Shown here piece by piece: positions 2,653-56,764 of a stretch of DNA of 64,000 nt; the stretch's first letter is position 1; every line of letters begins with the position of its first letter. The DNA is taken from contig JACNFK010000014.1 of assembly GCA_014384675.1 (NCBI GenBank), positions 1,213-65,212 on the forward strand, read 5' to 3'. Position numbers and translations under genes: made by a program. The notes beneath the pieces are model-generated. The model did no database searches. It was not told the DNA's origin and saw only the letters and a program-made list of their open reading frames with translations. The stretch comes from Candidatus Thiopontia autotrophica. Its GTDB lineage: Bacteria; Pseudomonadota; Gammaproteobacteria; GCF-002020875.

Positions 2653-3962
2653 TGATCTATTTTACCTTGCCACTCCATGGCTTGTTGTTTCAGTTTTTCC
2701 TGGTCCAGGGTGACCAGATCTCCGCCTCTTAGCAGGTGTTCTCCATTGACCCAAACCTCACGAACCTGGTTACGATTGGCAGAATATATCAGCTGGGAAG
2801 CGACATTGTATATGGGGTTAGTCTCCAGTGCACTGAGGTCAACGGCAATAAGGTCAGCCGCCTTTCCAGCAACTATGGAGCCGGTGATCTTTCCAAGCCC
2901 AAGTGCCTTGGCGCCATTCAGTGTTGCCATCTTTAGTGTCTGATGGGCAGACAGAGATGTGGGATCAAGGGAGACGCCTTTGGAGAGCAGGGCGGCAGTT
3001 CGTGCCTCACCCAGCATGTCCAGATCATTGTTGCTGGCGGCACTGTCTGTACCCAGTGCAACATTTACCCCTGCCTTCATCAATTTATCAACCGGGCAGA
3101 AACCACTGGCAAGCTTTAGATTTGATTCCGGGCAGTGGACTACACTGGCACCATACTCTGCAAGCAGCTTGATCTCGTCATCATTGAGCTGAGTCATGTG
3201 AACAGCAGTCAGTTGTGGCCCTAATAGCCCAAGATTGTGTAGCCGTTGCAGAGGTCTCATGCCAGATTGTTCAGTTGCCTCATCTACCTCATGGGCTGTC
3301 TCGTGAATATGCATGTGGATGGGTATGTCCAACTCCTCTGCAAGCATCTGAATTCTCTTCAGGGGTGCATCAGATACTGTGTATGGTGCATGTGGGGCAA
3401 ATGCAGTATGAATATGTGGGGAGTTTCGATACTGGTCATGTATTTTAAGCCCTTTCTCAAGATATTCATCGGGGCCGTCACCCCAGGCAGTTGGAAAATC
3501 GATGACAATCAGGCCGATTACTGCACGAATACCGCATTGGGCAGCGCTGTTTGCAGTCACCTCGGGGAAGAAGTACATGTCATTGAAGCAGGTTGTGCCT
3601 CCACGCAGCATCTCTGCCATCGCCAGCTCACTGCCGTCACGTACAAAATCTTCACTTACCCATTTCTGTTCAGCCGGCCAGATATGTTCCTGGAGCCAGG
3701 TCATAAGTGGAAGATCATCAGCAATCCCTCGTAACAGGGACATCGCTGTATGAGTATGGGAATTGATCAGCCCCGGCATCAATACGTGTCTCTCCAGGTC
3801 AAAACTCTGGGTCGCACTGTATTTTGCGCGCGCCTGTTCGCTTGTTAGTAGCTCAAGTATTAACCCATCATGGATAGCAACCGCATGGTTCTCCAGAATG
3901 GTCTCATCAGGCTCAATGGGGATGATCCATTCTGCATGAATTAATGTATCAATAGCTTGCAT
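2649..3962 (-). CDS. mtaD: 5-methylthioadenosine/S-adenosylhomocysteine deaminase (TRZ/ATZ amidohydrolase family)
   Basis: Contains the amidohydrolase metal motif [15 protein letters not shown] and is about 437 aa. It is divergent from mtnA, which fits a methionine-salvage context. Confidence 0.75.
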
Positions 3963-5141: not shown

Positions 5142-7709
5142 ATGACTGAATTTGCAAAGGAAGTCCTCCCTGTAAACATCGAGGAGGAGATGCGGCAGTC
5201 GTACCTTGACTACGCCATGAGCGTGATTGTCGGGCGTGCGCTCCCAGATGCCAGAGATGGCCTTAAACCTGTCCATCGTCGAGTGCTCTATGCGATGCAT
5301 GAGCTGGGGAATGACTGGAATAAATCCTACAAGAAATCGGCCCGCATTGTCGGTGACGTAATTGGTAAGTACCACCCTCATGGTGATACCGCGGTTTACG
5401 ATACGATTGTCCGTATGGCGCAGCCATTCTCGCTACGTTACATGCTGGTTGATGGTCAGGGTAACTTCGGTTCGGTGGATGGTGACTCCGCTGCCGCAAT
5501 GCGTTACACCGAGATCCGGATGTCAAAGATCGCCCATGATCTATTGGCTGACCTGGATAAGGAGACTGTCAATTTTACCCCCAACTACGATGAGAGTGAG
5601 CATGAGCCCTCCATCCTTCCGACCCGTCTGCCAAATCTACTGATCAACGGTTCTGAGGGAATTGCAGTAGGGATGGCAACCAAGATTCCTCCCCATAGTC
5701 TGACTGAGGTGGTTAGCGCAACAATAGCACTGGTTGATAATCCGGAGCTGGATATTGCTGGATTGATGGAGCATGTTCCTGGACCAGATTTCCCGACAGG
5801 GGCTATTATCAATGGGGTCAAGGGGATTCATGAGGCCTACAAGACGGGCCGTGGTCGTATATATTTGCGTGCGCGCACCCATATTGAGGGTGAAGAGGGG
5901 AAGAAGCAGACCCTGGTAGTTGATGAACTCCCATACCAAGTCAACAAGGCGAGACTGCTGGAGCGTATCGGTGAGCTGGTGCGCGAGAAGAAGTTGACCG
6001 GAATATCTGCCCTGCGTGACGAGTCCGATAAGGATGGCATGCGCATGGTGATTGAGCTGAAGAGGGGAGAGGTGGCGGACGTCGTTCGCAACAACCTCTT
6101 CAAGCAGACTGCTATGCAGAATGTCTTCGGCATCAATATGGTGGCGTTGGTTGATGGTCAGCCTCGTCTGATCAATCTGAAGCAGGCGCTTGAGGTGTTC
6201 ATTCGTCACCGCCGCGAGGTAGTAACTCGTCGTACTATATTTGAGCTACGCAAGGCACGTGAGCGTGCCCACGTACTGGAGGGGTTGGCGATTGCGTTAA
6301 CCAATATTGACCCTATTATTGCGCTGATCAAATCATCAGCAACACCAGCTGAAGCCAGAGAGAAGCTGGGATCGCAGGGGTGGCCGCCAGGAATCGTGGT
6401 GGAGATGCTGGATCGTGGCGATGCTGCAGATACCCGTCCCGAGGGGCTGGCTGATGGTTATGGTCTGATTGATGATCTATATCACCTCTCTCCAGTGCAG
6501 GTGCAGGCAATTCTTGATCTTAAACTTCACCGCCTTACCGGGCTGGAGAAGGAGAAAATTCTGGATGAGTACAGGGCCCTGCTGGAGAAGATTGGAGAGC
6601 TGCTCAATATCTTGCGCAATCCTGATCGCCTTATGGAGGTGATCCGTGAAGAGCTGGTAGAGATGCGGGACAAATATGGAGATGAGCGCAAGACCGAGAT
6701 TGTGCAGACTCAGGTAGATCTCTCGTTGGAGGATCTGATTAGTGAGGAGGATGTAGTTGTTACTCTTTCTCATGGTGGCTACGTCAAGGCGCAACCGGTT
6801 GCAGATTATCGCGCACAGCGCCGAGGTGGTCGTGGCAAGACGGCGGCAGCGATAAAGGATGAGGACTTTGTTGACAAGCTGGTTGTTGCCAATACCCATG
6901 ACACCATTCTCTGTTTCTCAACCAGAGGACGTCTCTATTGGTTGAAGGTGTATCAGTTACCGCAGGCTGGACGCACGGCTCGTGGAAAACCGATCAACAA
7001 CCTGCTTCCGCTGGAGGATGGGGAGCGTATTACCGCATTCCTGCCAGTGAGGGAATATAGTGAAGACAAGTTCATATTCATGGCGGCCACAAGCGGTATT
7101 GTTAAAAAGACACCTCTGACCGCATTTTCACGCCCCAGAACTGCAGGCATCATTGCTGTAGAGCTGAGGGATGATGATGAGCTGGTTGGGGTAGAGCTGA
7201 CTGGCGGGAGTAGTGACATTATGCTCTTTGCCAGCGGTGGCAAGGCGGTTCGTTTCCCTGAGTCGACAGTGCGGGCTATGGGACGTACAGCGCGCGGGGT
7301 CAAGGGAATGCGGCTCAATGTCGGTGAGCGCATTATCTCACTACTGGTTCCACAAAGGAGTCATGTTTTGACTGCAACCGAGCATGGGTTTGGCAAGCGC
7401 ACCTCGCTGGAGGAGTACCCATGCAAGGGCAGGGGAACCAAAGGGGTGATCTCAATTCAGACGTCAGAACGAAATGGTGCTGTTGTAGGTGCGGTTCAGG
7501 TTGATGAGGGAGAGGAGATCATGATGATCTCCAGTGGCGGTGTGCTGGTTCGTACCCGTGTGTCCGAGGTCTCCGTTTTGGCGCGCAATACCCAGGGTGT
7601 AACCCTTATTCGTCTGGGAGATGATGAGAGGTTGGTCGGGATCGAGCGTGTTGAGGAGAGTGAGGTGGAAGAAGCGGAAGAGGCAGTAGAGAATAGTGAA
7701 GATGAGTAA
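5142..7709 (+). CDS. gyrA: DNA gyrase subunit A
   Basis: 855 aa. The N-terminus ([29 protein letters not shown]) is the canonical GyrA motif, and the protein has an acidic C-terminal tail. Confidence 0.97.
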
Positions 7710-24425: not shown

Positions 24426-27095
24426 TCATGACTTGCTTGTGGTTTCAGCCGTATCATCAAGTTTTTTGGTTTTAATGAATGTTGTCGGTGCTCTGTCTGC
24501 TTCAGTATCTGGAATATTATGTTTCATGTGGGTAACCGGAAGCGTAATAACTACACAAGTGCCAACCCCATTATTGCTCTCCATGGATATGGTTCCATTG
24601 TGTTGTTCAATAACTCGTTTAACGATAGCCAGCCCAAGTCCTGTCCCCTTTGATCGGCTGGTGACAAAAGGCTCAAAGATTTCGTCTCTGTTTGATTCAT
24701 CTATCCCTGTGCCATTGTCGCAGATCTCTAGCTGGATGATTGAGCCATCATCATGCAGATCCATGCGTGCATTGATGATTATTTTTGGTCTGTCTGGGGC
24801 TGCTTCGGTAATCGCATGGATTGCATTGCTTAGCAGGTTGGTTAATACACGACGCATCTTGGTTTTGTCGACCTGTATTGTGGGTAGGCCGGCTGGATAG
24901 TGGGTGATTACGTCAATGCTGTTTTCAATGATCTGTTTTTGAATGGCATTGATTGCGGTCTCGGTTAATTTATCAAGGCTGCTCCAGGAGAGATCCAGTT
25001 CATCTGGTCGGGAATATGCGAGTAGCCCGTCCAGAATACTCTCCATGTAACGAATCTGTTGTAGCCCAATTTCATGCAACTCTCTATCTTCAGCGTTTCC
25101 GCCCTCTTTTTTGCTGAGAATCTGTAGCCCCATTTTGATGGATGAGAGAGGGTTGCGCAGATCATGAGCAACCATGCTGGCCATGCGTCCAACTACAGCA
25201 AGAGTCTTGGCTTGTGCTAACTCATCTTTTCGTTTCCGAATCTCCTCTTCAAGATCTTTTTGTGCAGTGATATCTTCCTTAACGGAGAGGAAGTGAGTTA
25301 TCTCACCATCTTCGTTGCGAATTGGTGACATAAGGGCGGACTCCCAATATAGTTCACCGCTCTTCTTTCTATTATGAAGGATGCCGCGCCACTCTTTTCC
25401 ACTACTGATTGTCTGCCACAGATCTCTGTACTCTTCTGGAGAGGTGTCTCCTGATTTCAGGATGCGAGGGTTTTTTCCTATTACCTCTTGTGGCAGATAG
25501 CCGGTGAGTTCGGTGAATTTTGGATTGACGTACTCAATTCTGCCAGTTCTGTCTGTAATCAGGATTACAGCAGGGCTCTGTTCAGCAGCACGCGCCAGCT
25601 TGGTAAGCTCTTCACGAGTTTGGTGCTGCTCAGTAATGTCCTGTCCAATACAGGTGATGCTCTCTATCTGGTTTGCATCATTAATAGTGGTTGTTGAAGT
25701 CCATGCAATCAGTCTATTCTTGCCACGAAAATCAATAATATGAGACTCATGGTAAGTTGACCCCTGCAAGCCATCTTCTCCATCAAGAATCTGTTTTATC
25801 CCGTTTATACTGTCACCATCAGGAACAAAATTATCAAACCAGTTTTTTCCGATCACATCACTGCGACGTTTTCTGAGCAGGTGTAGCAGGTAGTTGTTGC
25901 AGAACAGGATGTTGCCATCCAGATCAATGGTGAGTGCGGCAAGATGTATCTCTTCAAGAGTGTCTCGGAAGCGCAGCTCATTTGCCCGCTGTAGCTCATG
26001 TTCCTCTCTGCGTATGATGTTGTTGGTGAGTAGCAATGACAGTAGTGAGATAAAGAAGAGAATTGCTATATAGAGCAATCTGTTTTTCTGCAGAAAACCA
26101 AGTGGCGTGGACTCAAGGTTGGATGTTGGCAGGTAAGAGATAACTTTCCAGTTATATCTATTTAGCTGATCTGTGCTGATTATATGGTCAGTTGTTCCTG
26201 CTCTTATCTGGGCAACCCTGAGAGGGTTTACAGTTATATGCGAGAAGAGGCCGTTTGCTGTAATGAACTGCCCGGATTTTGTGCCACTAATATGGCTCCA
26301 TTCACTTTTAAACTCACTACTGAAAATATTGTCAGGATTGCCCAGCATGAATCCCCACTCTTTTTCCGGATTATTATGGCTTAGCCAGTATCCGTCACTG
26401 TTAACCAGATGCACCCTGTCCGTAATAGAGGCCACAGCACTTCTGAAGTTGTTGACGAGATCGATACCAAGATAGTTGAGTACGATCATCCCCCGACGCT
26501 CACCAGAAGATGAGTAAATAGGGGTGACAAATCTGATAACAGGTTTGTATGGGGTCTCCAGGCTGTTATTCTCAATATTAAGGTCCATAGGAGACAGGTA
26601 GACCTCACCATCAAGAAGTTCGAGCCCCTCTTTGATGTAGTATCTGTCAGACTTGTTTTGCAACTCTGAATCTGCAACCGAGATTCCACCCTTGTTACTG
26701 TAGTTTATTCGGCAAAGCTCATTGCCGGAATCGTCTATATAACGGATCTGATCATATATTCCGTTGTTGTTGGCAAAACTCAGAAACAGCTGGTTGATGT
26801 CGCTCTTCTTTTGAGCCATTTCTGTCTTGTCTACAAACATGATGTTATCCATCTGTTCTGCAAGGAAGAGCAGGTCAGAGACAATCTTCGATATATCTTT
26901 TGTAATCATCTCCTCGGCAAGGTGAATATTTAGCTCTTCAGCTCGCTTGATTGCGTTACCACGCACCTCATAATCAGAGTAGAAATGGATAGTGGCAGCC
27001 ACAAACAGGACAACTATCATGGGTAAAAGGAAGAGCATTAACAGGCGGCTCTTCTTTAACAGTGATGGAGTGTAGTGGTGTAGCGTCATCCGCAA
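24426..27095 (-). CDS. Sensor histidine kinase with a periplasmic dCache-like domain, two PAS domains, HisKA and HATPase_c
   Basis: A TM helix (LLMLFLLPMIVVLFVAATI), a roughly 300 aa periplasmic domain, then a second TM. The H-box is MASMVAHDLRNPLSSIK. There is no receiver domain. Confidence 0.85.
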   Translation of the reverse strand: MRMTLHHYTPSLLKKSRLLMLFLLPMIVVLFVAATIHFYSDYEVRGNAIKRAEELNIHLAEEMITKDISKIVSDLLFLAEQMDNIMFVDKTEMAQKKSDINQLFLSFANNNGIYDQIRYIDDSGNELCRINYSNKGGISVADSELQNKSDRYYIKEGLELLDGEVYLSPMDLNIENNSLETPYKPVIRFVTPIYSSSGERRGMIVLNYLGIDLVNNFRSAVASITDRVHLVNSDGYWLSHNNPEKEWGFMLGNPDNIFSSEFKSEWSHISGTKSGQFITANGLFSHITVNPLRVAQIRAGTTDHIISTDQLNRYNWKVISYLPTSNLESTPLGFLQKNRLLYIAILFFISLLSLLLTNNIIRREEHELQRANELRFRDTLEEIHLAALTIDLDGNILFCNNYLLHLLRKRRSDVIGKNWFDNFVPDGDSINGIKQILDGEDGLQGSTYHESHIIDFRGKNRLIAWTSTTTINDANQIESITCIGQDITEQHQTREELTKLARAAEQSPAVILITDRTGRIEYVNPKFTELTGYLPQEVIGKNPRILKSGDTSPEEYRDLWQTISSGKEWRGILHNRKKSGELYWESALMSPIRNEDGEITHFLSVKEDITAQKDLEEEIRKRKDELAQAKTLAVVGRMASMVAHDLRNPLSSIKMGLQILSKKEGGNAEDRELHEIGLQQIRYMESILDGLLAYSRPDELDLSWSSLDKLTETAINAIQKQIIENSIDVITHYPAGLPTIQVDKTKMRRVLTNLLSNAIHAITEAAPDRPKIIINARMDLHDDGSIIQLEICDNGTGIDESNRDEIFEPFVTSRSKGTGLGLAIVKRVIEQHNGTISMESNNGVGTCVVITLPVTHMKHNIPDTEADRAPTTFIKTKKLDDTAETTSKS

Positions 27096-27418
27096 CGACT
27101 CCTTATCTCCAGTTCAACACGATCCAGATAATCGTCTAGGGATTCACCCCCGTCTCTGGGGACCAGAAAAATCAATTTTGCAGCAATCAGATAAGGTCTT
27201 CGCGCCCCATCTCCAGCTGGACGTTCATCCTGTAGATTGGCCTTCAGATAACGTAGTGCCTCTTCAGGATTTTCACAGTAGCGTGGGAGTGATACCTCAT
27301 CGGCATACCACTCAATAGCTGAAGAGACAGATAGCATCAGCACTACAACCACAACAACAAAAGGAAAAATCTTTCCAATTGGGAAGGCATCCGTATACAT
27401 GTTTTCCTGATTACTCAT
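27086..27418 (-). CDS. Small membrane-anchored protein of unknown function
   Basis: Single TM helix (FPFVVVVVVLMLSV). ATGA overlap with the HemY-like stop, and its own stop overlaps the kinase start, so it is translationally coupled in the operon. Confidence 0.4.
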   Translation of the reverse strand: MSNQENMYTDAFPIGKIFPFVVVVVVLMLSVSSAIEWYADEVSLPRYCENPEEALRYLKANLQDERPAGDGARRPYLIAAKLIFLVPRDGGESLDDYLDRVELEIRSRCG

Positions 27419-28884
27419 GATGTATGAAGCACCGAGTGGTCGGATGGTCTCCAAATTGAGCGAATGGTTGATACTGATGCAGTAGATGGAGAGATGTTCT
27501 CTTGTTTGAGAATCTCCGCTGATAAAATTTGCCCCTGGGCGATACGGTCACGTACTGAGACTCCTCCAATGTAGTTGGCAGCAATATGGATACCAGGGGA
27601 GGATGATATATTCGATTTTATCTGCTTCACTCGTGCAGCATATCTGCCATGGTATAGAGGTAGTGCGTCCTGGTGGCGGTGTAGTGTCACCATCTCTGGA
27701 GCCCCGTTAATTCCCAAAATTGGTTTAAGAGCAGAAACAGTTCTCTCTACAATCTCCTCACTCTTCCATTGCTGGATCTCCGGGTGACGTGCACCGCCCA
27801 GATATGTGGTTAGCAGAATCTTGCCCTCGGGGGCGCGATTGTTGAAAAGGCTGCTCATCCAGATATTGCCATTGAATGGTGTGTTCTCGGATTTCGGAGT
27901 AAGGAAGCCGGTACCATCCAGAGAGTGGTCAATCTGACCACGGTCAAAGCCTGTGTGCAGTACTGTGAGGGGGGCATATTCAATCCCGTCCAGAAGTCGA
28001 CTTGCCTCAGGGGATATCGAGCTTAGCAGAGTTGCAGTTACTGCTGCCGGGGTGCTGAAAATTATATGGTGAGCATCCTGTTCAATCTCTATGGATTGTG
28101 GGGATGACCTGTCATGGCCAAACAGACGCCATTTCGGGCTGTTGTTGGTTGATCCAGGTGCTCTTTCAATTGCTGTTGCCTCAAGATTGGTACGGAAGGT
28201 GATCCCCGACTGTCGTGCCAACTGTTCAACCAGGGTAGACATGCCTCCCTTAAAGGAGAAAGTCTCGGTAATGCATCCACTCTTTTTTCGATTGAATTTG
28301 TGAATCATGGCGCCTGCTGTCAGGCTACCATATCTCTTTTCCAGAGCAGTCAGTCTTCCAAGTGTTGCCTCGGCATTGGCCAGATCTGGATCGGAGGCCA
28401 GGGTTCCGGAGACAAATGGGTCCATCGCCTTTTCCAGAAGCTCTCTACCAAAACGGCGTGTAATAAACTCGCTAACCGTCTCATTCTCACTGCCACCACG
28501 AGGAATAAATGGCTCAGCCAGCATTCTCAGCCGTCCTCTCATGCTCCAGCTTTTAGAGAAGAGGACGCTCTGCATATTCATGGAGATGGAGTTGAGTTTC
28601 CCGTTGCTTAACAGGTATCGATTCTGCTCTGCAAGTTGGGTGCGACTGCTCTTTAGTTTCTCAAGCCCGCTCTTTGCTATCAGCTCAGCAACCTCGGGAC
28701 GGAAGTTCAGCAGCAGGGCTGCAGCCTGCTCCATTGTGTACCCATCATGCTCGGTGGTCTTTATCTTTCCTCCGGGTCGTTTGTCACGCTCCCAGATCTC
28801 CACCTCCATCCCGGCCTGGCTCAACCACCATGCAGTTGAAAGTCCGGAGATACCGCCACCAACAATCAATACCTTTTTGGTCAC
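27415..28884 (-). CDS. HemY-family FAD-dependent protoporphyrinogen/coproporphyrinogen oxidase homolog
   Basis: N-terminal VLIVGGGISGLSTAWWL dinucleotide fold. A central ETVSEFITRRFGRELLEKAMDPFVSGTLASDPD block resembles PPOX, and the C-terminus reads NYIGGVSVRDRI. Confidence 0.7.
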   Translation of the reverse strand: MTKKVLIVGGGISGLSTAWWLSQAGMEVEIWERDKRPGGKIKTTEHDGYTMEQAAALLLNFRPEVAELIAKSGLEKLKSSRTQLAEQNRYLLSNGKLNSISMNMQSVLFSKSWSMRGRLRMLAEPFIPRGGSENETVSEFITRRFGRELLEKAMDPFVSGTLASDPDLANAEATLGRLTALEKRYGSLTAGAMIHKFNRKKSGCITETFSFKGGMSTLVEQLARQSGITFRTNLEATAIERAPGSTNNSPKWRLFGHDRSSPQSIEIEQDAHHIIFSTPAAVTATLLSSISPEASRLLDGIEYAPLTVLHTGFDRGQIDHSLDGTGFLTPKSENTPFNGNIWMSSLFNNRAPEGKILLTTYLGGARHPEIQQWKSEEIVERTVSALKPILGINGAPEMVTLHRHQDALPLYHGRYAARVKQIKSNISSSPGIHIAANYIGGVSVRDRIAQGQILSAEILKQENISPSTASVSTIRSIWRPSDHSVLHTS

Positions 28885-30923
28885 TGTTTGGCCCCCTCTT
28901 TTTTGGAGGTTCGTGGTCTCTTTAGCTCTGCCTTCATCTTGTCGAGCATCTCACGATCCAGAATACCCAGGCCCTCACCATTCTCACCTTGATGGCTCTC
29001 AACGTGGGTACGAATTTCTCCAAAACGTTTCTCGGCCTGGGGGTTGTCTTTCAGGCGTGGCACCCGTTTTTTGGCAATCTCCCAAGCATCAAAATTCAGC
29101 TCATCCATGCCAAAGCCACGAAGTCTGCGTACCGCCTTCATCATTGCCCGATTACGAAAACGGGTAAGGTCATCAGGAGTGATGATGGACAGCCCTTCCC
29201 GACGCGCATTGAATTCAGCCGCTTTCTTGATTCCGGCACGAACAAATTCTGGTGCACCCTCAACCCTTTTCAGGGCAACAAGATCCCACTCAACTCCGGC
29301 AATCTGGGTATCAATAATAATCTGGATATCGCCAGCAGTTACAGTTATCGAGTTGCGCTGCTTTGCCGCCATCTCTGCAGCTGTCTCCAGTGTCGGCTTA
29401 ACGAACATCACAACCTGTGGCTCCCTGTTAGAGAGGAAATCATCAAGCAGATTATCGGCCTCATCCTCCCAGTTGAGCCTGCGACCAGGCTCATCCTCAG
29501 CCTCCAGTCGATCCAGTAGTTTGGTATTGACCTCCAGTCGCCCCTCGGTTTGGGCTACATCTTCCGCCACCGCACGTACCCCTTCACGCAGGAAGGATGG
29601 GGTCTCATCGAGCCGTTGCTGTGCCTCGGCAGTCCAGACAAGGTGAATTTCCCCGTTATTATTGTCATCTTTATGCCCTGGACGCTTCGGCATGTTGGCG
29701 CCGAATCTTTTGCTGGAGAGCTCGGTCAGCACCTCTGAGGTAACCTCGGAGAGTCCCTGTTCCAGTACATGTTGCTCGGCACGCTTCTTGACCATCTTGC
29801 GAAGAAATCCTGGAACCCGGCCGAGCCGTTTTTCAGCCTCCGCACTCCAGGCTACATCCTCTTGCTCTGTAGAGTTGAGAGGCTGGATTATCTTCCCATT
29901 CTGTGGCTGGTAGGAGCACCATGGATCGGTATCCATCAGATCAGCTCCCAGCGCCTTGGGACGGGCACGACAACCGCCACAGAGTATCTGGTATTCGCAC
30001 TCTCCACACTTTCCCTTGAGGGCTGGATTTCTTAGCTGTTCAAAGGTCTCTGACTCATCCCAGATCGAGAGGAAGCTCTGCTGACGGATATTGCCCTCCT
30101 CATCAGGGATATATGGACAGGCAGTAACACCACCCTCCGGGGTGATGCGACAATAGTGGGTTCCAGCAATACAGCCACCACCCTCGTACCCTTCGGCCCG
30201 CGTGACGGGGCTGTTGGGATCGTTCTGATAGGCGATTCGTTTGTAGTGGGGGGCACAGCGGGCGCGGATCATTAGGTCGGGGTGCTTCTGTTGTGCCGCA
30301 ATGATCTGGTTAAGGGCCGCTTCATAGCGTTGTGGGGTGATGTCGGACATCTTCTCGCCACGCCCGGTGCAGACGAGGAAAAAGATGTTGAGCAGGTGGG
30401 CACCAACGGATTTGGTGAAGTCGACCATCCCCTCCAGCTCTTCGGCATTGCCTTCAGTGATGGAGAAGTGAACCTGAAAAGGGAGTTCGTGTTTGCGGCA
30501 GGCGTCCATTCCAGCCAGAGTCTTCTCCCAGCTCCCAGGGCAGCCGCGGAACTGATCATGAAATCCCGGATCAAGAGAGTCAACGCTGATGCCTGCACCC
30601 ATTGCGCCAGCCGCCTTGAGTGATTTAACCCGCTTCTCATTTAGCAGAACGCCATTGGTGCCGATGACGATGGAGAGGCCTAGTTGAGATCCATGGGCAA
30701 CCAACGCCTCCAGATCTTTTCGTAGCAGTGGCTCTCCTCCAGTCAGAACCACCATGGTATCGGTACTGCGGGCGGCAATCTGATCCAGTAGCTGGATCAC
30801 CTCTTCAGTGCTCAACTCACCATCGCCCCCTTGTTGCAGTGTCTCTGCATCAAGATAGCAGTGGCTGCAGTTGAGATTGCAGCGACGCGTCAGGTTGATG
30901 GCAAGAAGGAAGAGATCGTTCAT
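28881..30923 (-). CDS. Radical SAM/SPASM-domain enzyme with C-terminal PCP_red (protochlorophyllide-reductase B C-terminal-like) repeats
   Basis: CNLNCSHC is a CxxxCxxC radical SAM motif. GKCGECEYQILCGGCRARP is a SPASM motif. At least three repeats of the W-x-x-EAE-x-RL-x-x-VP-x-F-x-R type follow. The start is moved to the ATG at 30923 because the upstream codons lie inside a 25 bp inverted repeat. Confidence 0.8.
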   Translation of the reverse strand: MNDLFLLAINLTRRCNLNCSHCYLDAETLQQGGDGELSTEEVIQLLDQIAARSTDTMVVLTGGEPLLRKDLEALVAHGSQLGLSIVIGTNGVLLNEKRVKSLKAAGAMGAGISVDSLDPGFHDQFRGCPGSWEKTLAGMDACRKHELPFQVHFSITEGNAEELEGMVDFTKSVGAHLLNIFFLVCTGRGEKMSDITPQRYEAALNQIIAAQQKHPDLMIRARCAPHYKRIAYQNDPNSPVTRAEGYEGGGCIAGTHYCRITPEGGVTACPYIPDEEGNIRQQSFLSIWDESETFEQLRNPALKGKCGECEYQILCGGCRARPKALGADLMDTDPWCSYQPQNGKIIQPLNSTEQEDVAWSAEAEKRLGRVPGFLRKMVKKRAEQHVLEQGLSEVTSEVLTELSSKRFGANMPKRPGHKDDNNNGEIHLVWTAEAQQRLDETPSFLREGVRAVAEDVAQTEGRLEVNTKLLDRLEAEDEPGRRLNWEDEADNLLDDFLSNREPQVVMFVKPTLETAAEMAAKQRNSITVTAGDIQIIIDTQIAGVEWDLVALKRVEGAPEFVRAGIKKAAEFNARREGLSIITPDDLTRFRNRAMMKAVRRLRGFGMDELNFDAWEIAKKRVPRLKDNPQAEKRFGEIRTHVESHQGENGEGLGILDREMLDKMKAELKRPRTSKKEGAKQ

Positions 30924-30936
30924 TATGGAAAAGCAA

Positions 30937-31151
30937 CAGCGCCTCGCGCAAAGACGCAAAGAGGCAAAGGTTCTTTCATCGTCTTTTCTGCAGGATGTGC
31001 GTGATTGATTGTGTGGGTGATTTTTTTAGCTCTATAGATGTACTGCATCACTGAGTAGATTGTAGGTAGTAATTCGTTGCCAATGGGCATTCTGAATTGA
31101 ATACCATTGAACGCTTTTCTTAGCGGCTTTGCGTCTTTGCGCGAGGCGCTG
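30937..31151. repeat. 215 bp element bounded by perfect 25 bp terminal inverted repeats (CAGCGCCTCGCGCAAAGACGCAAAG)
   Basis: Left arm 30937-30961, right arm 31127-31151 as the exact reverse complement. It fills the Usp / radical SAM intergenic gap. Confidence 0.8.
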
Positions 31152-31158
31152 TGGCAGT

Positions 31159-33318
31159 TCATTTATACTGATCCGGATTGGATTCGGAGTGGAATCCGCT
31201 GCCCATCTCCCAGGCGTCACTGGCCTTGTCGACGGCGGCATGAGTCACCTGCTCGAGCCCCAACTCCCGTGCGCATCGCTCTACCTCCAGAACGACCATG
31301 CCCTGGACAAAGTCTGGAATCTTTTTGATCCGTGCGCGGGCTGCAGGGTCCCACACCATGGTGGACTGCTTCTCTTTCGATCCTGCCGCCCACTCGCTAT
31401 ATTTCTCCTCAACCAGCGCCTCGGTAATCTCTTCGGTGCGATGTTTTTTTGCAAACTGCTCGACTCGCTGTTTAGTCAGGTCGCGCATAAACCCTTCAGG
31501 AATACGTTCCATGCGGGCCTCGGCCTCAGGGCTCCAGTGAAGGGAGGTGCGTTGTGCGAGATTGGCAAAGGGGCAGAGGCTCGCTTTTTTCTCTGCTGGC
31601 TGTGGAGGGGTAGAGGATTGTTCTTGCATGGCCTCGGTCATTGCCTCGCGCGCTTGTTCCAATCCCGCTTCGACGACTTCCAGTGTGATCTCTTGCAACT
31701 GGTTGTCGCGGGCATATGATTCAATGCGATCCCTGCTGGAGTCGCGCATGAACCCCTCGGGAACACGGGATAGGCGCGCGAGTGCAGCAGCACCCCATGT
31801 CAGTGTGGATGAGGTAGCAGTAGCCTCTTCTTGGCCGATGAATGGCCGGATATGCTCAATCTTGACCCGATTGGAGCGCTCTCCACGTGCCTTTTTCTCT
31901 GCACGCATACTGAGGTTGCCGCGCAGTGCCAGATCCTCAATCGTCATGAGTAACTGAGAGGCATCGCTGTCCCAGCGCATGATCTTGTCGGTGACGACTC
32001 CAGCTTCTTCCGGTTTACGTTTGAGTTCGCCTGCCTCGTAGGCATCTACAATCTCTCCCATCGCCTGCTCTGCATGGTTCGGCATCAACTGGGCGGTGGC
32101 CTCTTCAACAATTCGTTCGGTAATGACGGTATGGCCACGCTCCTGTGCATAACGGAGGATCGCCATTCTGGCCATATTGCGAACAAAGGAGGGGACCTTA
32201 TCCATTCTGGATTCAGCCTCATTTGTCCATGAGGTGGTGGTCTCCGCCACCACATCAATCTCTGGGCGGTAGGTGCGCTGGCTCAGTAGTACCGCACACT
32301 CGACATTGCGCAGTAATATCTCACTGTTGCCACCAATATCGAGCTCATCATCGGCATGAATCCCCAGCTTTCCGATAACCAGCAGGGAGGGGCGGGCGTT
32401 GGCGACATAGCGTTCAACTGCATCGTGCGCCTTGCCATCAAGCAGGGTGGTCTCAATCTCAACCCCATAATCTCGGGCAATAGATTCTGCCACATCCAGA
32501 TGCCCCTGATAAATCTTGGCCAGACCGGAGTCGATGATCTCCTCGTGGAGCTTCTCCTGCTCCTTGAACTTGAATACCTTGCCTGCCTCCTCGGAAAGAA
32601 CTCCTGCAATCCGGTTAAATGCTACGTAGTGGTAGTAGGGGTCAAAGGCGGAGATCACCTTAACCTTGCAGCTCCACTCTTTTGCCAGGGAGAAAGCCGT
32701 CAGTAATCCACCATAGGCTCTGTCAGAACCGTCAATGGCAACCACAATGGGGCCACGCTCAAGATTTATCTCTGGCTCCTTGATTACCAGAACATCAATC
32801 TCCGAGCGCCGAGCAACGCGGTCGGTTACTGTTCCCAGGCGACTGCCACGAATTGCGCCCAGCCCCAGTGCCCCCATAACCAGCAGGTCATACCTCCCAC
32901 TATTGGTTTCGCGGGTCAGTTCACGATAGTTTTTCCCCTCAAGTGGACGGCGATCAAATGCAATCTCGTTTTCCGCAGCAAGCTCCTCGGCCTGGTCCAG
33001 ATAAGAGTCGGTAATAATGGAGAGGCCCTTGGTGATCAAGTCATCGTGGACATCTCGTTGACGCTCCAGCTCCAGCTCCTCACGAAACTGCTCCGGCAGA
33101 CCTCCCTCCATCTGGCGGAAACGGATGTCATGTAGTTTGGCAGCATAGACATGCGTGCCCGTAATTTTTGCCCCCCAGTGCGCAGCCATTTGAAAGGCCT
33201 CGGTAGTGCCGCGGTTGGAGTGGTCCGAAGAGTCAACAGCAAGCAGTATCCCCTGGTAGGTTGGAAGAGGATCTGGCTTGGTTGGTTGCTCCATTTTTAC
33301 TACATTTTCATTTTGCAT
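31159..33318 (-). CDS. Tandem universal-stress-protein (UspA) domains fused to five PCP_red repeats
   Basis: Two Usp domains (ILLAVDSSDHS...LLVMGALG and IVVAIDGSDRA...LLVIGKLG). Five repeats follow, for example WTNEAESRMDKVPSFVRNMA and WSPEAEARMERIPEGFMRD. Confidence 0.75.
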   Translation of the reverse strand: MQNENVVKMEQPTKPDPLPTYQGILLAVDSSDHSNRGTTEAFQMAAHWGAKITGTHVYAAKLHDIRFRQMEGGLPEQFREELELERQRDVHDDLITKGLSIITDSYLDQAEELAAENEIAFDRRPLEGKNYRELTRETNSGRYDLLVMGALGLGAIRGSRLGTVTDRVARRSEIDVLVIKEPEINLERGPIVVAIDGSDRAYGGLLTAFSLAKEWSCKVKVISAFDPYYHYVAFNRIAGVLSEEAGKVFKFKEQEKLHEEIIDSGLAKIYQGHLDVAESIARDYGVEIETTLLDGKAHDAVERYVANARPSLLVIGKLGIHADDELDIGGNSEILLRNVECAVLLSQRTYRPEIDVVAETTTSWTNEAESRMDKVPSFVRNMARMAILRYAQERGHTVITERIVEEATAQLMPNHAEQAMGEIVDAYEAGELKRKPEEAGVVTDKIMRWDSDASQLLMTIEDLALRGNLSMRAEKKARGERSNRVKIEHIRPFIGQEEATATSSTLTWGAAALARLSRVPEGFMRDSSRDRIESYARDNQLQEITLEVVEAGLEQAREAMTEAMQEQSSTPPQPAEKKASLCPFANLAQRTSLHWSPEAEARMERIPEGFMRDLTKQRVEQFAKKHRTEEITEALVEEKYSEWAAGSKEKQSTMVWDPAARARIKKIPDFVQGMVVLEVERCARELGLEQVTHAAVDKASDAWEMGSGFHSESNPDQYK

Positions 33319-33419
33319 GTTATATAACCTCTTTTTACGGCCTCTTGTGGCCCCTCTCTCTTGTTTATGAATACTTGCAAAAGCACACTAATAATGCGGT
33401 TTTGTAAAGACCCTAAACG

Positions 33420-33445
33420 ATCATCCCCCAATAGAGGGGGATGAT
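33420..33445 (-). terminator. GC-rich hairpin downstream of the cupredoxin-like gene (candidate terminator)
   Basis: ATCATCCCCC-AATAGA-GGGGGATGAT, a 10 bp stem with a weak U-tract. Confidence 0.35.
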
Positions 33446-33580
33446 GTTACAGATTTGTTGGTTGTTCCTAGATCACCATGTACCAAATGATAATGGTGCA
33501 GACAACAACCATGTTGATAGCTCCACCTGTAAGTACCATACGGTCAAACAGGGTGAGTTTCTCTGGAAGCAGACGTCTCA

Positions 33581-34348
33581 TTACTTCATCTTGATATCAA
33601 CAGTTACAGTATCGCCACCCTTAACAGTAGCCTTGCCTTTTCCTGGCTTGAGGAAGCCATTGAAGGCCCTGACCTTGTATTTGCCAGGAGGTACGTTGTC
33701 GATAGTGTACTTTCCGTTGCCATCTACCACAGCGTAGTATGGGCTCTTGGCCACAAAGACGAAACCGTGCATAAAGTCATGAGCATCACACTCAACCTTC
33801 ATGGCATAACCTTTTTTCAGCTTTACAGTCTTGGTCACCTTGCTGCCCTGGTCAGGCTGGCTCACATTTGCAACGGTCTTTTTAGGCCCTTTGACGGTAC
33901 CGGTCATCAGCTCATAGGTGTGAAGATTGTGAAGAACAGGATCAGAGTTGATAGCAGTCATCTTGCCGCCATTTTGCATGATAGAGAGGAATGGGGTGAA
34001 TTCGCATCCTTTCTGATCTACATTGATCTCAGCAGGAGTGTCTCCCCACGCCTTGCCTGATTTTACCTTAGTCAGATAGACAACTGCATTGAGCAGTGCC
34101 TTGCCGTTGGTCTGAACGTAATCGATGATGCGCTGGTCATTGCCACATACGGCATTGTCCTTCTTTATGTCATAAACCTTGTGGGCAGACTTTGGTGCAG
34201 CCTTCTTCAGGGTTACGGTTCCGGTGATGGTGCCGCCATTAGCGACATCAACCACCTTGTAGCCAGCCTCTGAGCTGAGTGGGGTGAATGCAGCAGCAGT
34301 GATTGCTACAGCAGAGAGTGTCTTAAGTAGACGTTTTGATGTTTTCAT
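33581..34348 (-). CDS. Secreted cupredoxin-like (amicyanin/pseudoazurin-type) protein with a C-terminal carboxypeptidase-regulatory-like beta-sandwich
   Basis: Signal peptide. A VLHNLH ... VECDAHDFMHGF arrangement (H ... C-x2-H-x2-M) matches the amicyanin type-1 copper ligand spacing. The C-terminus (GKYTIDNVPPGKYKV) is CarboxypepD_reg-like. Confidence 0.5.
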   Translation of the reverse strand: MKTSKRLLKTLSAVAITAAAFTPLSSEAGYKVVDVANGGTITGTVTLKKAAPKSAHKVYDIKKDNAVCGNDQRIIDYVQTNGKALLNAVVYLTKVKSGKAWGDTPAEINVDQKGCEFTPFLSIMQNGGKMTAINSDPVLHNLHTYELMTGTVKGPKKTVANVSQPDQGSKVTKTVKLKKGYAMKVECDAHDFMHGFVFVAKSPYYAVVDGNGKYTIDNVPPGKYKVRAFNGFLKPGKGKATVKGGDTVTVDIKMK

Positions 34349-34404
34349 GTCAATTTGACTCCTGGGTTAAATAAAACAAAATAGTTAATGAAAAAATAGT
34401 TACT

Positions 34405-36846
34405 TTATGCGGCCTGAAGATGGTCGGGTTCCTGGCTGGTTTGGTATATCTCTTCCAGCATCTCGATCACAAATCTGCGCTCCGCACTGCTCTGCATGGA
34501 CTCCAGCAAGGGTAGCAGATGGTTTGCACCGATTACAGGGTCGAGAATTCTAAGTGCTCTTCCCATATGTCTTGCCTGTTCACCGGCACCAGCAAAACCT
34601 GCGTCCAGTATCTTTAGAATAAATTCTTTGCTCTCTTGGGGGCTTTCTGTGCCACTACTTAACAGCGAGGTTATTGCATCAGCCGCATATTTTCTGACTG
34701 AGGGTTGGTCATCTTCCAGTTTCTCACTGATTTTCTGCAAGATTTCACTGTTGGCAACCTCGTTGGTCACCATGTGAGCCTCTTCTACAGAGTCAAGTTT
34801 GCTTGAGGCAATGGTGGCAAGAGCACGCACCGACTCCATTCGTACAACGGTATCATCATCATCCAAACATTCAATCAGGGTTGGTATGGCAGCCCGGTTT
34901 TCCATTGCTCCAAGGGCGCGGATGGCAGCCATGCGAATGTCGGGGTCACCAAAATGGACCTGAGATATAAGTGTTCCCTGTGTATCAAGCAGTTTTGGGT
35001 TGGCCGGATTGCCAGCAGCAATCTCCGCCAGGGCCTCGGCAGCCAATCTACGAATCTCATGGTCATCATCACTAAGCGCAAGATTTAGCTCATTTATTGC
35101 CAGATTACTTTGTTGACGCCCCAGAATGGTTGCCGCCATGCGACGCACATCAGTATGTATGTCCTTGTTCTTGAACCTGCGTTCACGGCGAACTGTCGCC
35201 TCCTCGTTATCCTCCAGGATGCCAAGATACTCCTTGGTCTCTTCATCAAACTCCTCTTCAGCTGGGGCCTCCTCCTCATCCAGCAAAAGGGCTGCCTCAA
35301 CATTATCCATTGCAATGGCATCGAGTGTTGAGACACTATCGCGGCTTTCACCCTCCAGGGTTGGTGATTCAGGAAAGTCTGGCAACGCAGGTTCTTCGCT
35401 CACGGTATCTTCTTCCGTACCATTTTCAGTGTTGTTCTCCAGATCAACACTCTTGTTGAACTGAACCTCCTGAGACTGGGCAACCACCTCCTTCTGCTCC
35501 TCCTCCTCTTCCTCACGAGTCAGGTCAATCTCGCCATGGAGTGCCGAGAGGATGATCTCAATGGGGCGCGGATGATTTTCACTGTCATCACTGTCAGATG
35601 CTGCTACATATTTATCCTCACAATCCATAAGAGAGATCAGGGCGGCCAGACGAACAGGCTGTTCAGGATCGCTTAGTGCATTGGTGAGTGCATCAACTCC
35701 TGAATCTGTTATCTGGTCCATTAGTGACAGGCTAAGTGCGGCCTGTCTACGAATAGCGATTTCGTTACTGTCATCAGCAAGCAGAGTGACCAGTTTCTCT
35801 TCTGCATCACTGGTGTTCAGTTTTGAGAAGAGCTTGGTCGCTGCAGTAGAAGATTCAATGTCAGCATCACCGATTAATTCAATTATGCGATCAATGACTT
35901 CACCACCAAGCTTCTCTCTCAATACCTCTCTGCGCAGATTTGCCAGGGTATTGAGTGAGGTTGCACGTACCAGGGCGCTCTCATCGTCAAGAAGACCAGT
36001 AAACAGGTCTACAGTCTCCTGGGTTGGGTTTTTCATCTCTCCCAATGTGGTCGCAGCATGTGCTGCTGCACTGCGCACTTCGTCACTTGGGTTCTTTAGT
36101 AACAGCATAATGGCCGGCAGGTATCTCTTCGCATCCTGCTCCTCCAGGGCCTTAATTGCATGTACGCGGACATCAGTGTGTTTGGAGCTTAGTGCTCTAC
36201 CAAGAATCTTGACTGCCTCTGCAGAATTTGACCGTCCCAGAGCGGTAGCCGCACGGCGCTGTTTACGAACATCCCCTTCATTCAGGATCTTTTCCAGGGT
36301 TTTGATGCTCTCTTCACTACCAATAGCGGCCATGGATCGCAGAATCTCTGGCTCTATATCTTCACCTTCAATGCTGTTGAGCAGTCGTTCCAGTGCAGGT
36401 ACAGCGTCATTGGCCTTTAGCTTGCCGAGTGATTTAACCGCAGCGAGCTGAACATCCCACCAGAGATCCCATCCATCCTCGATGTAACCTATCTCATCAT
36501 CACGATTCTCCATAACGCGCATCAGCTCAGGTACTGCGGATTGGTCGCCGAGTTCCCCCAGGGCCTTGGCAACGGCAGTTTTTACCTCGCCATCAGGATC
36601 TTTCTCAAGAGACTCAATTAGTGAAGCAGCGACCCCCTCGCCACCAAGTTTTCCGAGTGTGGATGCTGCATCAACACATACATCAATATCCTTGTCTCTA
36701 AGGAATGGCAGAACTTTTTTGGATACACTATTTGTAGCTGATGGGGCACAAAGTTTCCCCAGAGCCTGAGTTACATAACAGCGATCAGCTTCGTCACCGG
36801 TCTCTAGCAGGTGGGTTAATGCATCAATTGTTTTATTCAGGCTCAT
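34405..36846 (-). CDS. Large HEAT-repeat (PBS-lyase-type) protein with acidic low-complexity segments
   Basis: Repeated VRxxAAxALGxLGD HEAT/E-Z motifs throughout its 813 aa, with EEEEEQKE and DEEEAPAEEEFDEE tracts. Confidence 0.7.
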   Translation of the reverse strand: MSLNKTIDALTHLLETGDEADRCYVTQALGKLCAPSATNSVSKKVLPFLRDKDIDVCVDAASTLGKLGGEGVAASLIESLEKDPDGEVKTAVAKALGELGDQSAVPELMRVMENRDDEIGYIEDGWDLWWDVQLAAVKSLGKLKANDAVPALERLLNSIEGEDIEPEILRSMAAIGSEESIKTLEKILNEGDVRKQRRAATALGRSNSAEAVKILGRALSSKHTDVRVHAIKALEEQDAKRYLPAIMLLLKNPSDEVRSAAAHAATTLGEMKNPTQETVDLFTGLLDDESALVRATSLNTLANLRREVLREKLGGEVIDRIIELIGDADIESSTAATKLFSKLNTSDAEEKLVTLLADDSNEIAIRRQAALSLSLMDQITDSGVDALTNALSDPEQPVRLAALISLMDCEDKYVAASDSDDSENHPRPIEIILSALHGEIDLTREEEEEEQKEVVAQSQEVQFNKSVDLENNTENGTEEDTVSEEPALPDFPESPTLEGESRDSVSTLDAIAMDNVEAALLLDEEEAPAEEEFDEETKEYLGILEDNEEATVRRERRFKNKDIHTDVRRMAATILGRQQSNLAINELNLALSDDDHEIRRLAAEALAEIAAGNPANPKLLDTQGTLISQVHFGDPDIRMAAIRALGAMENRAAIPTLIECLDDDDTVVRMESVRALATIASSKLDSVEEAHMVTNEVANSEILQKISEKLEDDQPSVRKYAADAITSLLSSGTESPQESKEFILKILDAGFAGAGEQARHMGRALRILDPVIGANHLLPLLESMQSSAERRFVIEMLEEIYQTSQEPDHLQAA

Positions 36847-56495: not shown

Positions 56496-56534
56496 AGGTA
56501 GAGGCCAACGAGTTTTGATGTAGAATCAGTTTTC

Positions 56535-56705
56535 GATCTCTCGGGTGTCCTCTCTCCAGGTCTGGAGATGGGAAGAATCGGGAAAGCGGTGTAAATCCGC
56601 TACGTGCCCAGCGCTGTAATGGGGATCTCTCAACCAGAACCCACTGATCCTGTGATCGGGAAGGGGGTTGAGAGAGTTGAACCAGAGTCAGAAGACCGGC
56701 CTGAG
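56535..56705 (+). promoter_or_regulatory. Cobalamin (adenosylcobalamin) riboswitch upstream of bluB
   Basis: Conserved core GGGAAGAATCGGGAAAGCGGTGTAAATCCGCTACGTGCCCAGCGCTGTAATGGGGA and a B12-box-like CCCACTGATCCTGTGATCGGGAAGGGGG. Confidence 0.75.
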
Positions 56706-56764
56706 AGAGTAACAGGAGATGCCGTGGAGTGGCCTCTTCAGATGTTTTTCATAAGGGGACTATA

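Follow-up and report, generated by a model that had tools for sequence, protein, structure and literature searches.

We analyzed a stretch of 64,000 nucleotides from Candidatus Thiopontia autotrophica (assembly GCA_014384675.1, contig JACNFK010000014.1, positions 1,213 to 65,212; hereafter the window), in which a palindromic element lies between two genes. Both genes are on the minus strand, which adds the orientation to what the initial annotation of this DNA had reported. The upstream gene codes for a protein with Usp and PCP_red domains (Usp-PCP_red), and the downstream gene for a radical SAM-SPASM protein with a PCP_red domain (rSAM-SPASM-PCP_red, hereafter rSAM). Read along the minus strand, the junction comprises the following features.

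31159..33318 (minus strand), Usp-PCP_red gene, 719 aa, Usp and four PCP_red domains by domain search
31157..31163 (minus strand), direct repeat AATGAAC, upstream copy; contains an ATG (31162-31160) that shares two letters with the Usp-PCP_red stop codon TGA (31161-31159)
30923..31162 (minus strand), bridging open reading frame (ORF), 79 codons and a stop, overlapping the Usp-PCP_red stop as ATGA and the rSAM start as TAATG
30925..31156, whole inserted element, 232 bp; bounds taken from the flanking direct repeat and from the comparison of filled and empty junctions
31127..31151, right arm (5' arm in mRNA sense), pairs perfectly over 25 bp with the left arm; extended arm 31119-31160
30962..31126, AT-rich interior between the 25-bp arms, 165 bp
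30937..30961 (plus-strand letters), left arm, perfect 25-bp core, 3' arm in mRNA sense; extended arm 30928-30969
30929..30957 (minus strand), terminator-like local hairpin in the 3' arm (GCGUCUU-UGCGC-GAGGCGC), then U-rich UGUUGCUUUU, found by consensus scan
30918..30924 (minus strand), downstream copy of the direct repeat AATGAAC, containing the present rSAM start codon (30923-30921)
28881..30923 (minus strand), rSAM gene, 680 aa, radical SAM-SPASM and PCP_red by domain search

The inverted repeat is real: CAGCGCCTCGCGCAAAGACGCAAAG at 30937-30961 (plus strand) is the exact reverse complement of 31127-31151, and both the perfect 25-bp terminal repeats and the 165 bp enclosed by them are as initially annotated. 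At 86% complementarity the repeat extends to 42 nt (30928-30969/31119-31160). No match to the 25-mer within 3 mismatches was obtained in 100 shuffles of the window. The left arm holds the head CCTCGCG followed by three GCAAAG units with a period of 8 nt. The interior has a GC content of ~40% (vs ~55% in the flanks) and showed no significant similarity to any other DNA compared in this analysis. The 215-bp unit had been thought to fill the intergenic gap precisely, which is only nearly so, as the gap measures 235 bp (30924-31158) and 13 nt are left before the rSAM ATG and 7 nt after the Usp-PCP_red stop. The element is a single palindrome in which we found no direct or tandem repeat. A Pfam and ORF inspection of its interior revealed no transposase-like ORF either; in this respect, in its size (<~400 bp) and in its terminal inverted repeats it fits a generic MITE (miniature inverted-repeat transposable element).

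Orthologous Usp/rSAM junctions were retrieved from related uncultured Gammaproteobacteria and Sedimenticola; all are given in mRNA sense. Six of them are empty, with the two genes overlapping or separated by at most 9 nt:

L124, TAG ttccc GTG
L126, TAA accacagcc ATG
L130, TAGTG overlap
L131, TAG ccgacactc ATG
L132, TAA gtcccc ATG
L139, TAG cctcc ATG

Three junctions are filled with the same kind of element, namely the window, L028 (from a metagenome-assembled genome (MAG) labelled Piscirickettsiaceae at NCBI) and L128. L133 is a remnant that retains only a 46-nt piece of the left arm, and L137 carries an unrelated 38-nt spacer. In the window, L028, L128 and L133 alike, the upstream end has AAATGAA(C/T) and the downstream end ATGAAC. 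The direct repeat so formed measures 7 bp (AATGAAC) in two of them, the window and L128, 5 bp in L028 and 6 bp in L133. This repeat is present twice in none of the six empty junctions. In these four loci the ATG that overlaps the Usp-PCP_red stop comes from the upstream copy, and rSAM now starts in the downstream copy. The simplest history is an insertion into an ATGA-type stop/start overlap with a target duplication of 5-7 bp. The proposal of a MITE-like insertion in the initial annotation is thus backed by a set of empty, filled and remnant sites (six, three and one, respectively), as expected for a MITE, by the 7-bp flanking repeat and by the same arms around other interiors elsewhere (see below). 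As to the two checks suggested there, a candidate target duplication, AATGAAC, flanks the element on both sides, and counting copies yielded a single one in the 64-kb window.

The arms could also form a 25-bp RNA stem, as had been suggested. Such a stem is indeed predicted, with a minimum free energy of -86.9 kcal/mol (z = -6.6); its 3' strand stops 4-13 nt short of the rSAM ATG. L028 and L057, the latter another copy of the arms in the L028 genome, have predicted folds of a similar kind. The pairing, however, is not conserved as pairing. The L028 arms carry an A-C mismatch, and the arms of L128 have 8-10 mismatches without compensatory changes; because these arms are only 76% complementary, the stem is not preserved as such. 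Among the independent filled loci, which are few for an analysis of RNA covariation, the existing arm differences are not compensatory. Sequence identity of the window to L028 is 95% for the 3' arm, ~77% for the flanking coding sequence and ~50% for the interior; interiors of orthologous filled loci are only ~50% identical.

The bridging open reading frame

The initial annotation had recorded that ORFs on both strands start with MRLCARRC and had taken this as an ORF-calling artifact. This is correct for the TTG-started ORFs 28881..30959 (minus strand) and 31129..31719 (plus strand), which both begin in an arm, but by treating the arm-derived ORFs as an artifact only it overlooked the 79-codon frame that crosses the 5' arm, the interior and the 3' arm. 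The frame set by the ATGA overlap contains no stop codon in the window, L028 or L128, whereas each of the other five frames has 2-9. When the 157-nt interiors were shuffled, the chance of an open frame was 0.045 for the window, 0.042 for L028 and 0.025 for L128. We then applied a broader criterion, that some frame be open over the whole spacer and stop within 12 nt of the ATG, to the six insert-bearing junctions (window, L028, L128, L133, L138 and L140). All six have such a frame, with null probabilities of 0.023, 0.009, 0.046, 0.65, 0.042 and 0.50, respectively; their joint probability is not the plain product, since the three module-bearing loci are not fully independent. The geometry at the rSAM start is TAATG in the window, TGATG in L028, TAA followed by 6 nt in L128, ATGA in L133 and L138, and TAA directly followed by ATG in L140. 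The ORF of the L133 remnant, which has 17 codons, ends in its ATGA overlap with rSAM.

Two of these junctions, L138 and L140, bear other palindromes. L138, whose rSAM is 84% identical, has at the same position (1538-1722) a different, nested palindrome of 185 nt with inverted repeats of 20 nt (1541-1560/1691-1710) and 24 nt (1577-1600/1645-1668). It is crossed by a GTG-started ORF of 59 codons with a GGGAG Shine-Dalgarno-like sequence, the ATGA overlap with rSAM and a Cys-rich peptide (FWKKCCSCLS). L140, from Sedimenticola, has a 90-nt spacer (2911-3000) with a palindrome of the (CACAGAGN)n type that is open in frame with the Usp gene and whose TAA abuts the rSAM ATG. Palindromic repeats seem to land repeatedly in the Usp/rSAM junction, or to be tolerated there. 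The L028 element has at its upstream end a 21-nt in-frame tandem duplication (ATGAAYARCAGCCACAGCG, two copies, 5163-5212), by which the bridging ORF is seven codons longer and a second ATGAAC arises.

The peptide, in contrast to the frame, is not conserved. It has no Pfam match, and an exhaustive HMMER search of 1.84 billion protein representatives returned only the L128 counterpart (E = 3e-6) and three weak partial matches to much longer proteins. On a protein-guided alignment the ratio of nonsynonymous to synonymous differences (pN/pS) is ~0.6-1.0, with little or no codon-position pattern, and the best nucleotide alignment of the bridging ORFs requires frame-shifting indels. The GC contents at the three codon positions are 0.39/0.33/0.45 in the ORF interior vs 0.64/0.41/0.60 in the neighboring genes, so that the interior lacks the genomic signature of GC1 > GC2. 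The conserved property is the openness of the frame, not the peptide. As the ORF persists open while its peptide is unconserved, selection appears to act on an open frame that ends at the ATG. By direct reading, no Shine-Dalgarno-like sequence precedes the ATG of either the bridging ORF or rSAM in the window. Gene callers treat the region differently: the bridging ORF is called, or the rSAM N-terminus is extended into the arm, or nothing is called. For annotation this means that relay ORFs and arm-extended rSAM starts are handled inconsistently.

Our preferred interpretation, which we hold with moderate confidence, is that a non-autonomous palindromic insertion of ~232 bp, similar to a MITE or to a REPIN (a doublet of repetitive extragenic palindromic (REP) sequences), occupies a translationally coupled junction and is tolerated because the ORF acts as a relay. 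The element would have entered the formerly tight stop/start junction of a coupled pair, Usp-PCP_red followed by rSAM-SPASM-PCP_red, and duplicated AATGAAC. The old rSAM start codon would have been retained, still overlapping the Usp stop as ATGA, and would now open the 79-codon ORF. Ribosomes finishing Usp-PCP_red could re-initiate at this codon, melt the 25- to 42-bp stem while translating and keep the RNA covered, and their termination at TAATG would deliver them to the rSAM start by termination-reinitiation. Without the relay, the stem would mask the mRNA upstream of the rSAM ATG to within 4-13 nt of this codon, and ~235 nt of double-stranded mRNA would stay untranslated. Translation of rSAM is probably coupled to the termination of Usp-PCP_red, because the genes overlap or are at most 9 nt apart in the empty relatives and no obvious Shine-Dalgarno sequence is present; here we rely on the coupling behavior of junctions of -4 to +9 nt (reviewed in PMC12548453). 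We infer the coupling, the melting of the stem and the fitness rationale from this arrangement. If they hold, the locus is a natural example of an operon that absorbs a 232-bp hairpin at a stop/start overlap without uncoupling its two genes.

Several points weigh against this interpretation. Co-transcription, translation of the ORF and coupling are all deduced from sequence. Common ancestry or one family master copy underlies the window, L028 and L128, the filled loci with the module, whose interiors all measure exactly 157 nt; their ORF tests are therefore not fully independent. By their composition the arms lack stops in all six frames, and open frames are to that extent likelier from the outset. 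Site preference or chance may account for part of the direct repeat, since 3 nt of this repeat prolong the inverted repeat as well, and the ancestral empty sequence is not unambiguously reconstructable. The neighbor-joining tree of the rSAM gene is star-like, with the filled loci not cleanly monophyletic, and is compatible with different numbers of gains and losses. Finally, the L057 copy, which lies between ahcY and metF, offers no complete bridge: its open frame stops 2 nt short of the metF ATG and meets its first start codon (TTG) only mid-element. No clear target duplication was seen at this copy.

The arm module and known repeat systems

The arm core is not confined to this lineage. In a scan of 185,579 species genomes, the 20-mer CCTCGCGCAAAGACGCAAAG occurred in at least 133 exact copies at at least 120 loci, where ~1 would be expected by chance; these counts are lower bounds. 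The module itself reads YCTCRCGCARAGNCGCARAG. The hosts belong to at least 10 phyla and include MAGs of Verrucomicrobiota, Chloroflexaceae, Acidobacteriota, Planctomycetota, Binatia, Nitrospirota, Desulfobacterota, Cyanobacteria, Bacteroidota, Gammaproteobacteria and others. The module is T-poor, with a head YCTCRCG followed by (CARAGNCG)n. The head is non-periodic: 33 of 59 additional GCARAG arrays in the module loci start with YCTCRC. The module is found in genome-specific repeat families, as nested long palindromes in a Verrucomicrobiae MAG, as palindromes of opposite polarity in an Acidobacteriota MAG and within a 108-nt unit with sharp ends in a Chloroflexaceae MAG, and it also occurs as singletons. 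Among the matches listed, 49 of the 133 copies are paired, in one polarity or the other, with an inverted copy (≤4 mismatches) no more than 600 bp away.

The module palindromes are T-poor in one half (2-12% T in 13 of 20) and are therefore without stop codons; over 20 module elements we counted 67 open frames vs 25.8 ± 3.9 in shuffles. Likewise, one strand of the arms is almost T-free, which precludes stop codons in all six frames. A classification of the module copies as genic or intergenic was abandoned, because shadow ORFs and ORFs extended through stop-free arms made it too noisy.

The same arms enclose other interiors in L057 and in L135, from a plasmid of Ca. Thiodictyon syntrophicum Cad16T; with L028 and L057, one relative's MAG thus carries these arms at two loci or more, each time around another interior. 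The L057 element (5903-6062), whose ahcY neighbor has an S-adenosylhomocysteine riboswitch upstream (7517-7597), holds in its different interior an extra near-perfect hairpin (GAGAATGTTGCAACACTCTC). In L134 (573-650), on Nostoc punctiforme plasmid pNPUN04, an alcohol dehydrogenase gene is followed by a terminator-like hairpin (GACACGGAGAGT...ACTCTCCGTGTC) whose loop, rather than its stem, is formed by GCAAAG units (AGACGCAAAGACGCAAAGAAAG).

Searches for machinery linked to the module were negative. No parent insertion sequence with the same terminal inverted repeats was found among the module loci examined (at least 120), and none of the listed loci had an inverted module pair 0.6-4.5 kb apart enclosing a transposase-sized ORF. 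A Pfam scan of 137 neighboring ORFs gave ordinary housekeeping genes without an enriched family, and no transposase family was among the listed top families; nor was the REP-associated tyrosine transposase RAYT (Y1_Tnp) among the top families of these neighborhoods, to which that search was confined. BLAST of the element against plasmids gave no match, and the consensus arm gave only noise-level short matches in plasmid and phage collections, except for the Thiodictyon plasmid element. In JGI metagenome scans, the 25-mer had 0 matches and a lineage-specific 24-mer had 1 unrelated match, with no sign of a high copy number. An Rfam scan of the window and of 18 module-bearing loci returned nothing at the gathering threshold and only chance-level hits (E = 4-7) at permissive thresholds, and a full-text literature search for the arm sequence, its variants and the translated peptides found no relevant paper by string.

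The cross-phylum arm module is the most novel and least understood part of this system; whatever machinery spreads or regenerates its 20-mer, no transposase is linked to it at the loci examined. We suggest only tentatively, and with more doubt than confidence, that the arms represent an undescribed class of palindrome-building modules (YCTCRCG plus (CARAGNCG)n) which, with one nearly T-free strand and no stop in six frames, would act as a "frame-neutral hairpin" that settles in translated junctions with a read-through relay ORF. The occurrence of one 20-nt module in palindromic repeats of at least 10 phyla, with no Rfam family, raises the question of how such modules arise and spread.

Among known repeats, the closest analogue of the relay ORF is the mycobacterial interspersed repetitive unit (MIRU). 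MIRUs are small repeats at start codons or intercistronic operon junctions, and carry an ORF in the direction of the neighboring genes whose ends overlap the flanking stop and start; this "ribosome delivery" by translational coupling is thought to preserve expression (Supply et al. 1997, as summarized in PMC3184786 and PMC12548453). Such an internal ORF is present here, with ATGA and TAATG in the window and equivalent geometry in the five other insert-bearing orthologues. However, MIRUs are tandem units of 46-101 bp that are restricted to Mycobacterium and do not form long hairpins, whereas here one lone palindrome of 232 bp, its arms 25 to 42 bp long, lies in a gammaproteobacterium. Its sequence is probably unrelated to that of MIRUs. 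The start codon of the relay also seems to be the host gene's own, duplicated start codon, unlike in MIRU.

In construction the element resembles the Correia elements of Neisseria, MITEs of 100 to 160 bp with terminal inverted repeats of ~26 bp that are often co-transcribed and form a long RNA stem (PMC2649163, PMC10969869). Correia elements differ by a TA target duplication, an IHF site, promoter creation and experimentally shown cleavage by RNase III, while our element is characterized by a predicted fold; their host range is also different, and no relay ORF has been described for them. Chunjie, a MITE from Geobacter uraniireducens Rf4 with 21-bp terminal inverted repeats, can be set apart by description only, through its 9-bp direct repeats (vs 5-7 bp here).

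The module resembles REP sequences, bacterial interspersed mosaic elements and REPINs in being a short palindrome beside housekeeping genes, in its intercistronic or 3' positions, in the lack of an internal transposase and in forming inverted doublets with a spacer, such as the partnered copies mentioned above, and it behaves REP-like in the Verrucomicrobiota and Acidobacteriota MAGs. REP sequences, however, are species- or genus-specific, RAYT-linked and have a GTAG head, whereas our 20-mer is spread over phyla, has the head YCTCRCG and occurs once in the window, which is not the lineage-specific high copy number of REPs and REPINs. Rickettsia palindromic elements are stop-free palindromic repeats that can lie in translated sequence (PMC10969869), but they are inserted in frame inside protein genes and encode conserved peptides, while our element lies between genes and its peptide is not conserved.

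By analogy, the element may best be described as working like a MIRU and built like a Correia or Chunjie element. If our interpretation is true, the idea of ribosome delivery would extend from Mycobacterium to Gammaproteobacteria and to palindromic elements.

Alternative explanations

The competing explanation that survives best, although we consider it unlikely, is that the insert is a neutral fossil of a selfish palindromic element, tolerated and inert, with rSAM initiated independently and the open frame a by-product of T-poor/A-poor arms and chance. The stop-free composition of the arms in all six frames, the decay of the L128 arms to 76% complementarity, the loss of the element in some lineages (L133 remnant), the incomplete bridge of L057 and the nearly free evolution of the interiors all agree with it. 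It is harder to reconcile with the ~157-nt AT-rich interiors, which are open in the relevant frame at 3 of 3 module-bearing loci in spite of 2-9 stops in the other frames, and with the open frame across an unrelated palindrome (L138: 62 sense codons, p = 0.04). Moreover, the frame always ends at the rSAM ATG or at most 6 nt from it, and this ATG is abutted by the stem and has no Shine-Dalgarno-like sequence.

It is improbable, in our view, that the element serves RNA processing or attenuation, with the duplex as an RNase III site, or with the 3'-arm hairpin and its U-rich tail as a partial terminator, so that Usp-PCP_red and rSAM would be produced at different levels. RNase III needs roughly two helical turns, which the perfect 25-bp duplex exceeds. 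This duplex length, the very stable predicted stem and the terminator-like hairpin with its U-rich tail, which the sense strand carries at 30957-30929, shortly before the rSAM ATG, would suit such a function, as would the precedent of Correia elements, which are cut by RNase III at their terminal inverted repeats (PMC2649163, PMC10969869). The mismatches in L128 and L028 without compensatory change argue otherwise, and a translating ribosome would hold the stem open. Since most relatives lack the element and have a gap of ≤9 nt, such regulation is neither ancestral nor required. This function would be compatible with the relay that we favor.

A genuine small protein with ends coded by the arms, for example a precursor of a ribosomally synthesized and post-translationally modified peptide for the adjacent radical SAM/SPASM enzyme, is very improbable, and we rejected this hypothesis given the lack of a Pfam match, the single orthologue in the HMMER search, and pN/pS (near 1) and codon-position GC values unlike those of a gene. 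It was suggested by the position of the ORF directly upstream of a SPASM-domain enzyme, to which it would be translationally linked, by its being called as a gene in some assemblies (L122, L128) and by the Cys-rich ORF with its GGGAG sequence at the same position in L138. Yet the ORF is absent from most orthologous clusters (the six empty junctions), the rSAM gene is conserved in many genera without it, and its conservation is limited to the DNA repeat arms, themselves present at the unrelated L057 locus and in other phyla as well.

Least probable of all is a DNA-level operator at which the inverted arms with their 8-bp iterated GCAAAG units bind a regulator or nucleoid protein: the arms are better conserved than the interior or flanking coding sequence (the 3' arm comparison of the window with L028) and the module has a defined head and iterated units, but the site lies in an operon junction and not in a promoter, a consensus scan found no promoter-like site within the element, and in many phyla the module adjoins unrelated housekeeping genes without a common neighbor.

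Flanking genes and their cluster

The rSAM N-terminus MNDLFLLAINLTRRCN is kept in all orthologues. The closest homologues of this protein (76-84% identity) are from uncultured Gammaproteobacteria, and more distant ones (~65-68%) from Sedimenticola, Thiodiazotropha and Thiolapillus. The two genes belong to a conserved cluster (24426-36846, minus strand) that codes for a HEAT-repeat protein, a CarboxypepD_reg protein, a 37-aa ORF, Usp-PCP_red, rSAM-SPASM-PCP_red, an amine-oxidase-like flavoprotein, a 110-aa ORF and a PAS sensor kinase. This cluster is syntenic across sulfur-oxidizing Gammaproteobacteria; in relatives, a sigma54 activator follows and a cytochrome bd-like/cytochrome c cluster adjoins. 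The conserved 37-codon ORF MRRLLPEKLTLFDRMVLTGGAINMVVVCTIIIWYMVI (33468-33581, minus strand) abuts the CarboxypepD_reg-domain gene and has no Pfam match on record. The C-terminal half of its product is hydrophobic and possibly membrane-spanning, and it is called as a gene of 36-37 aa in six orthologous contigs examined. Elsewhere in the window, a cobalamin riboswitch (RF00174, 108.8 bits) lies at 56526-56718 on the plus strand.
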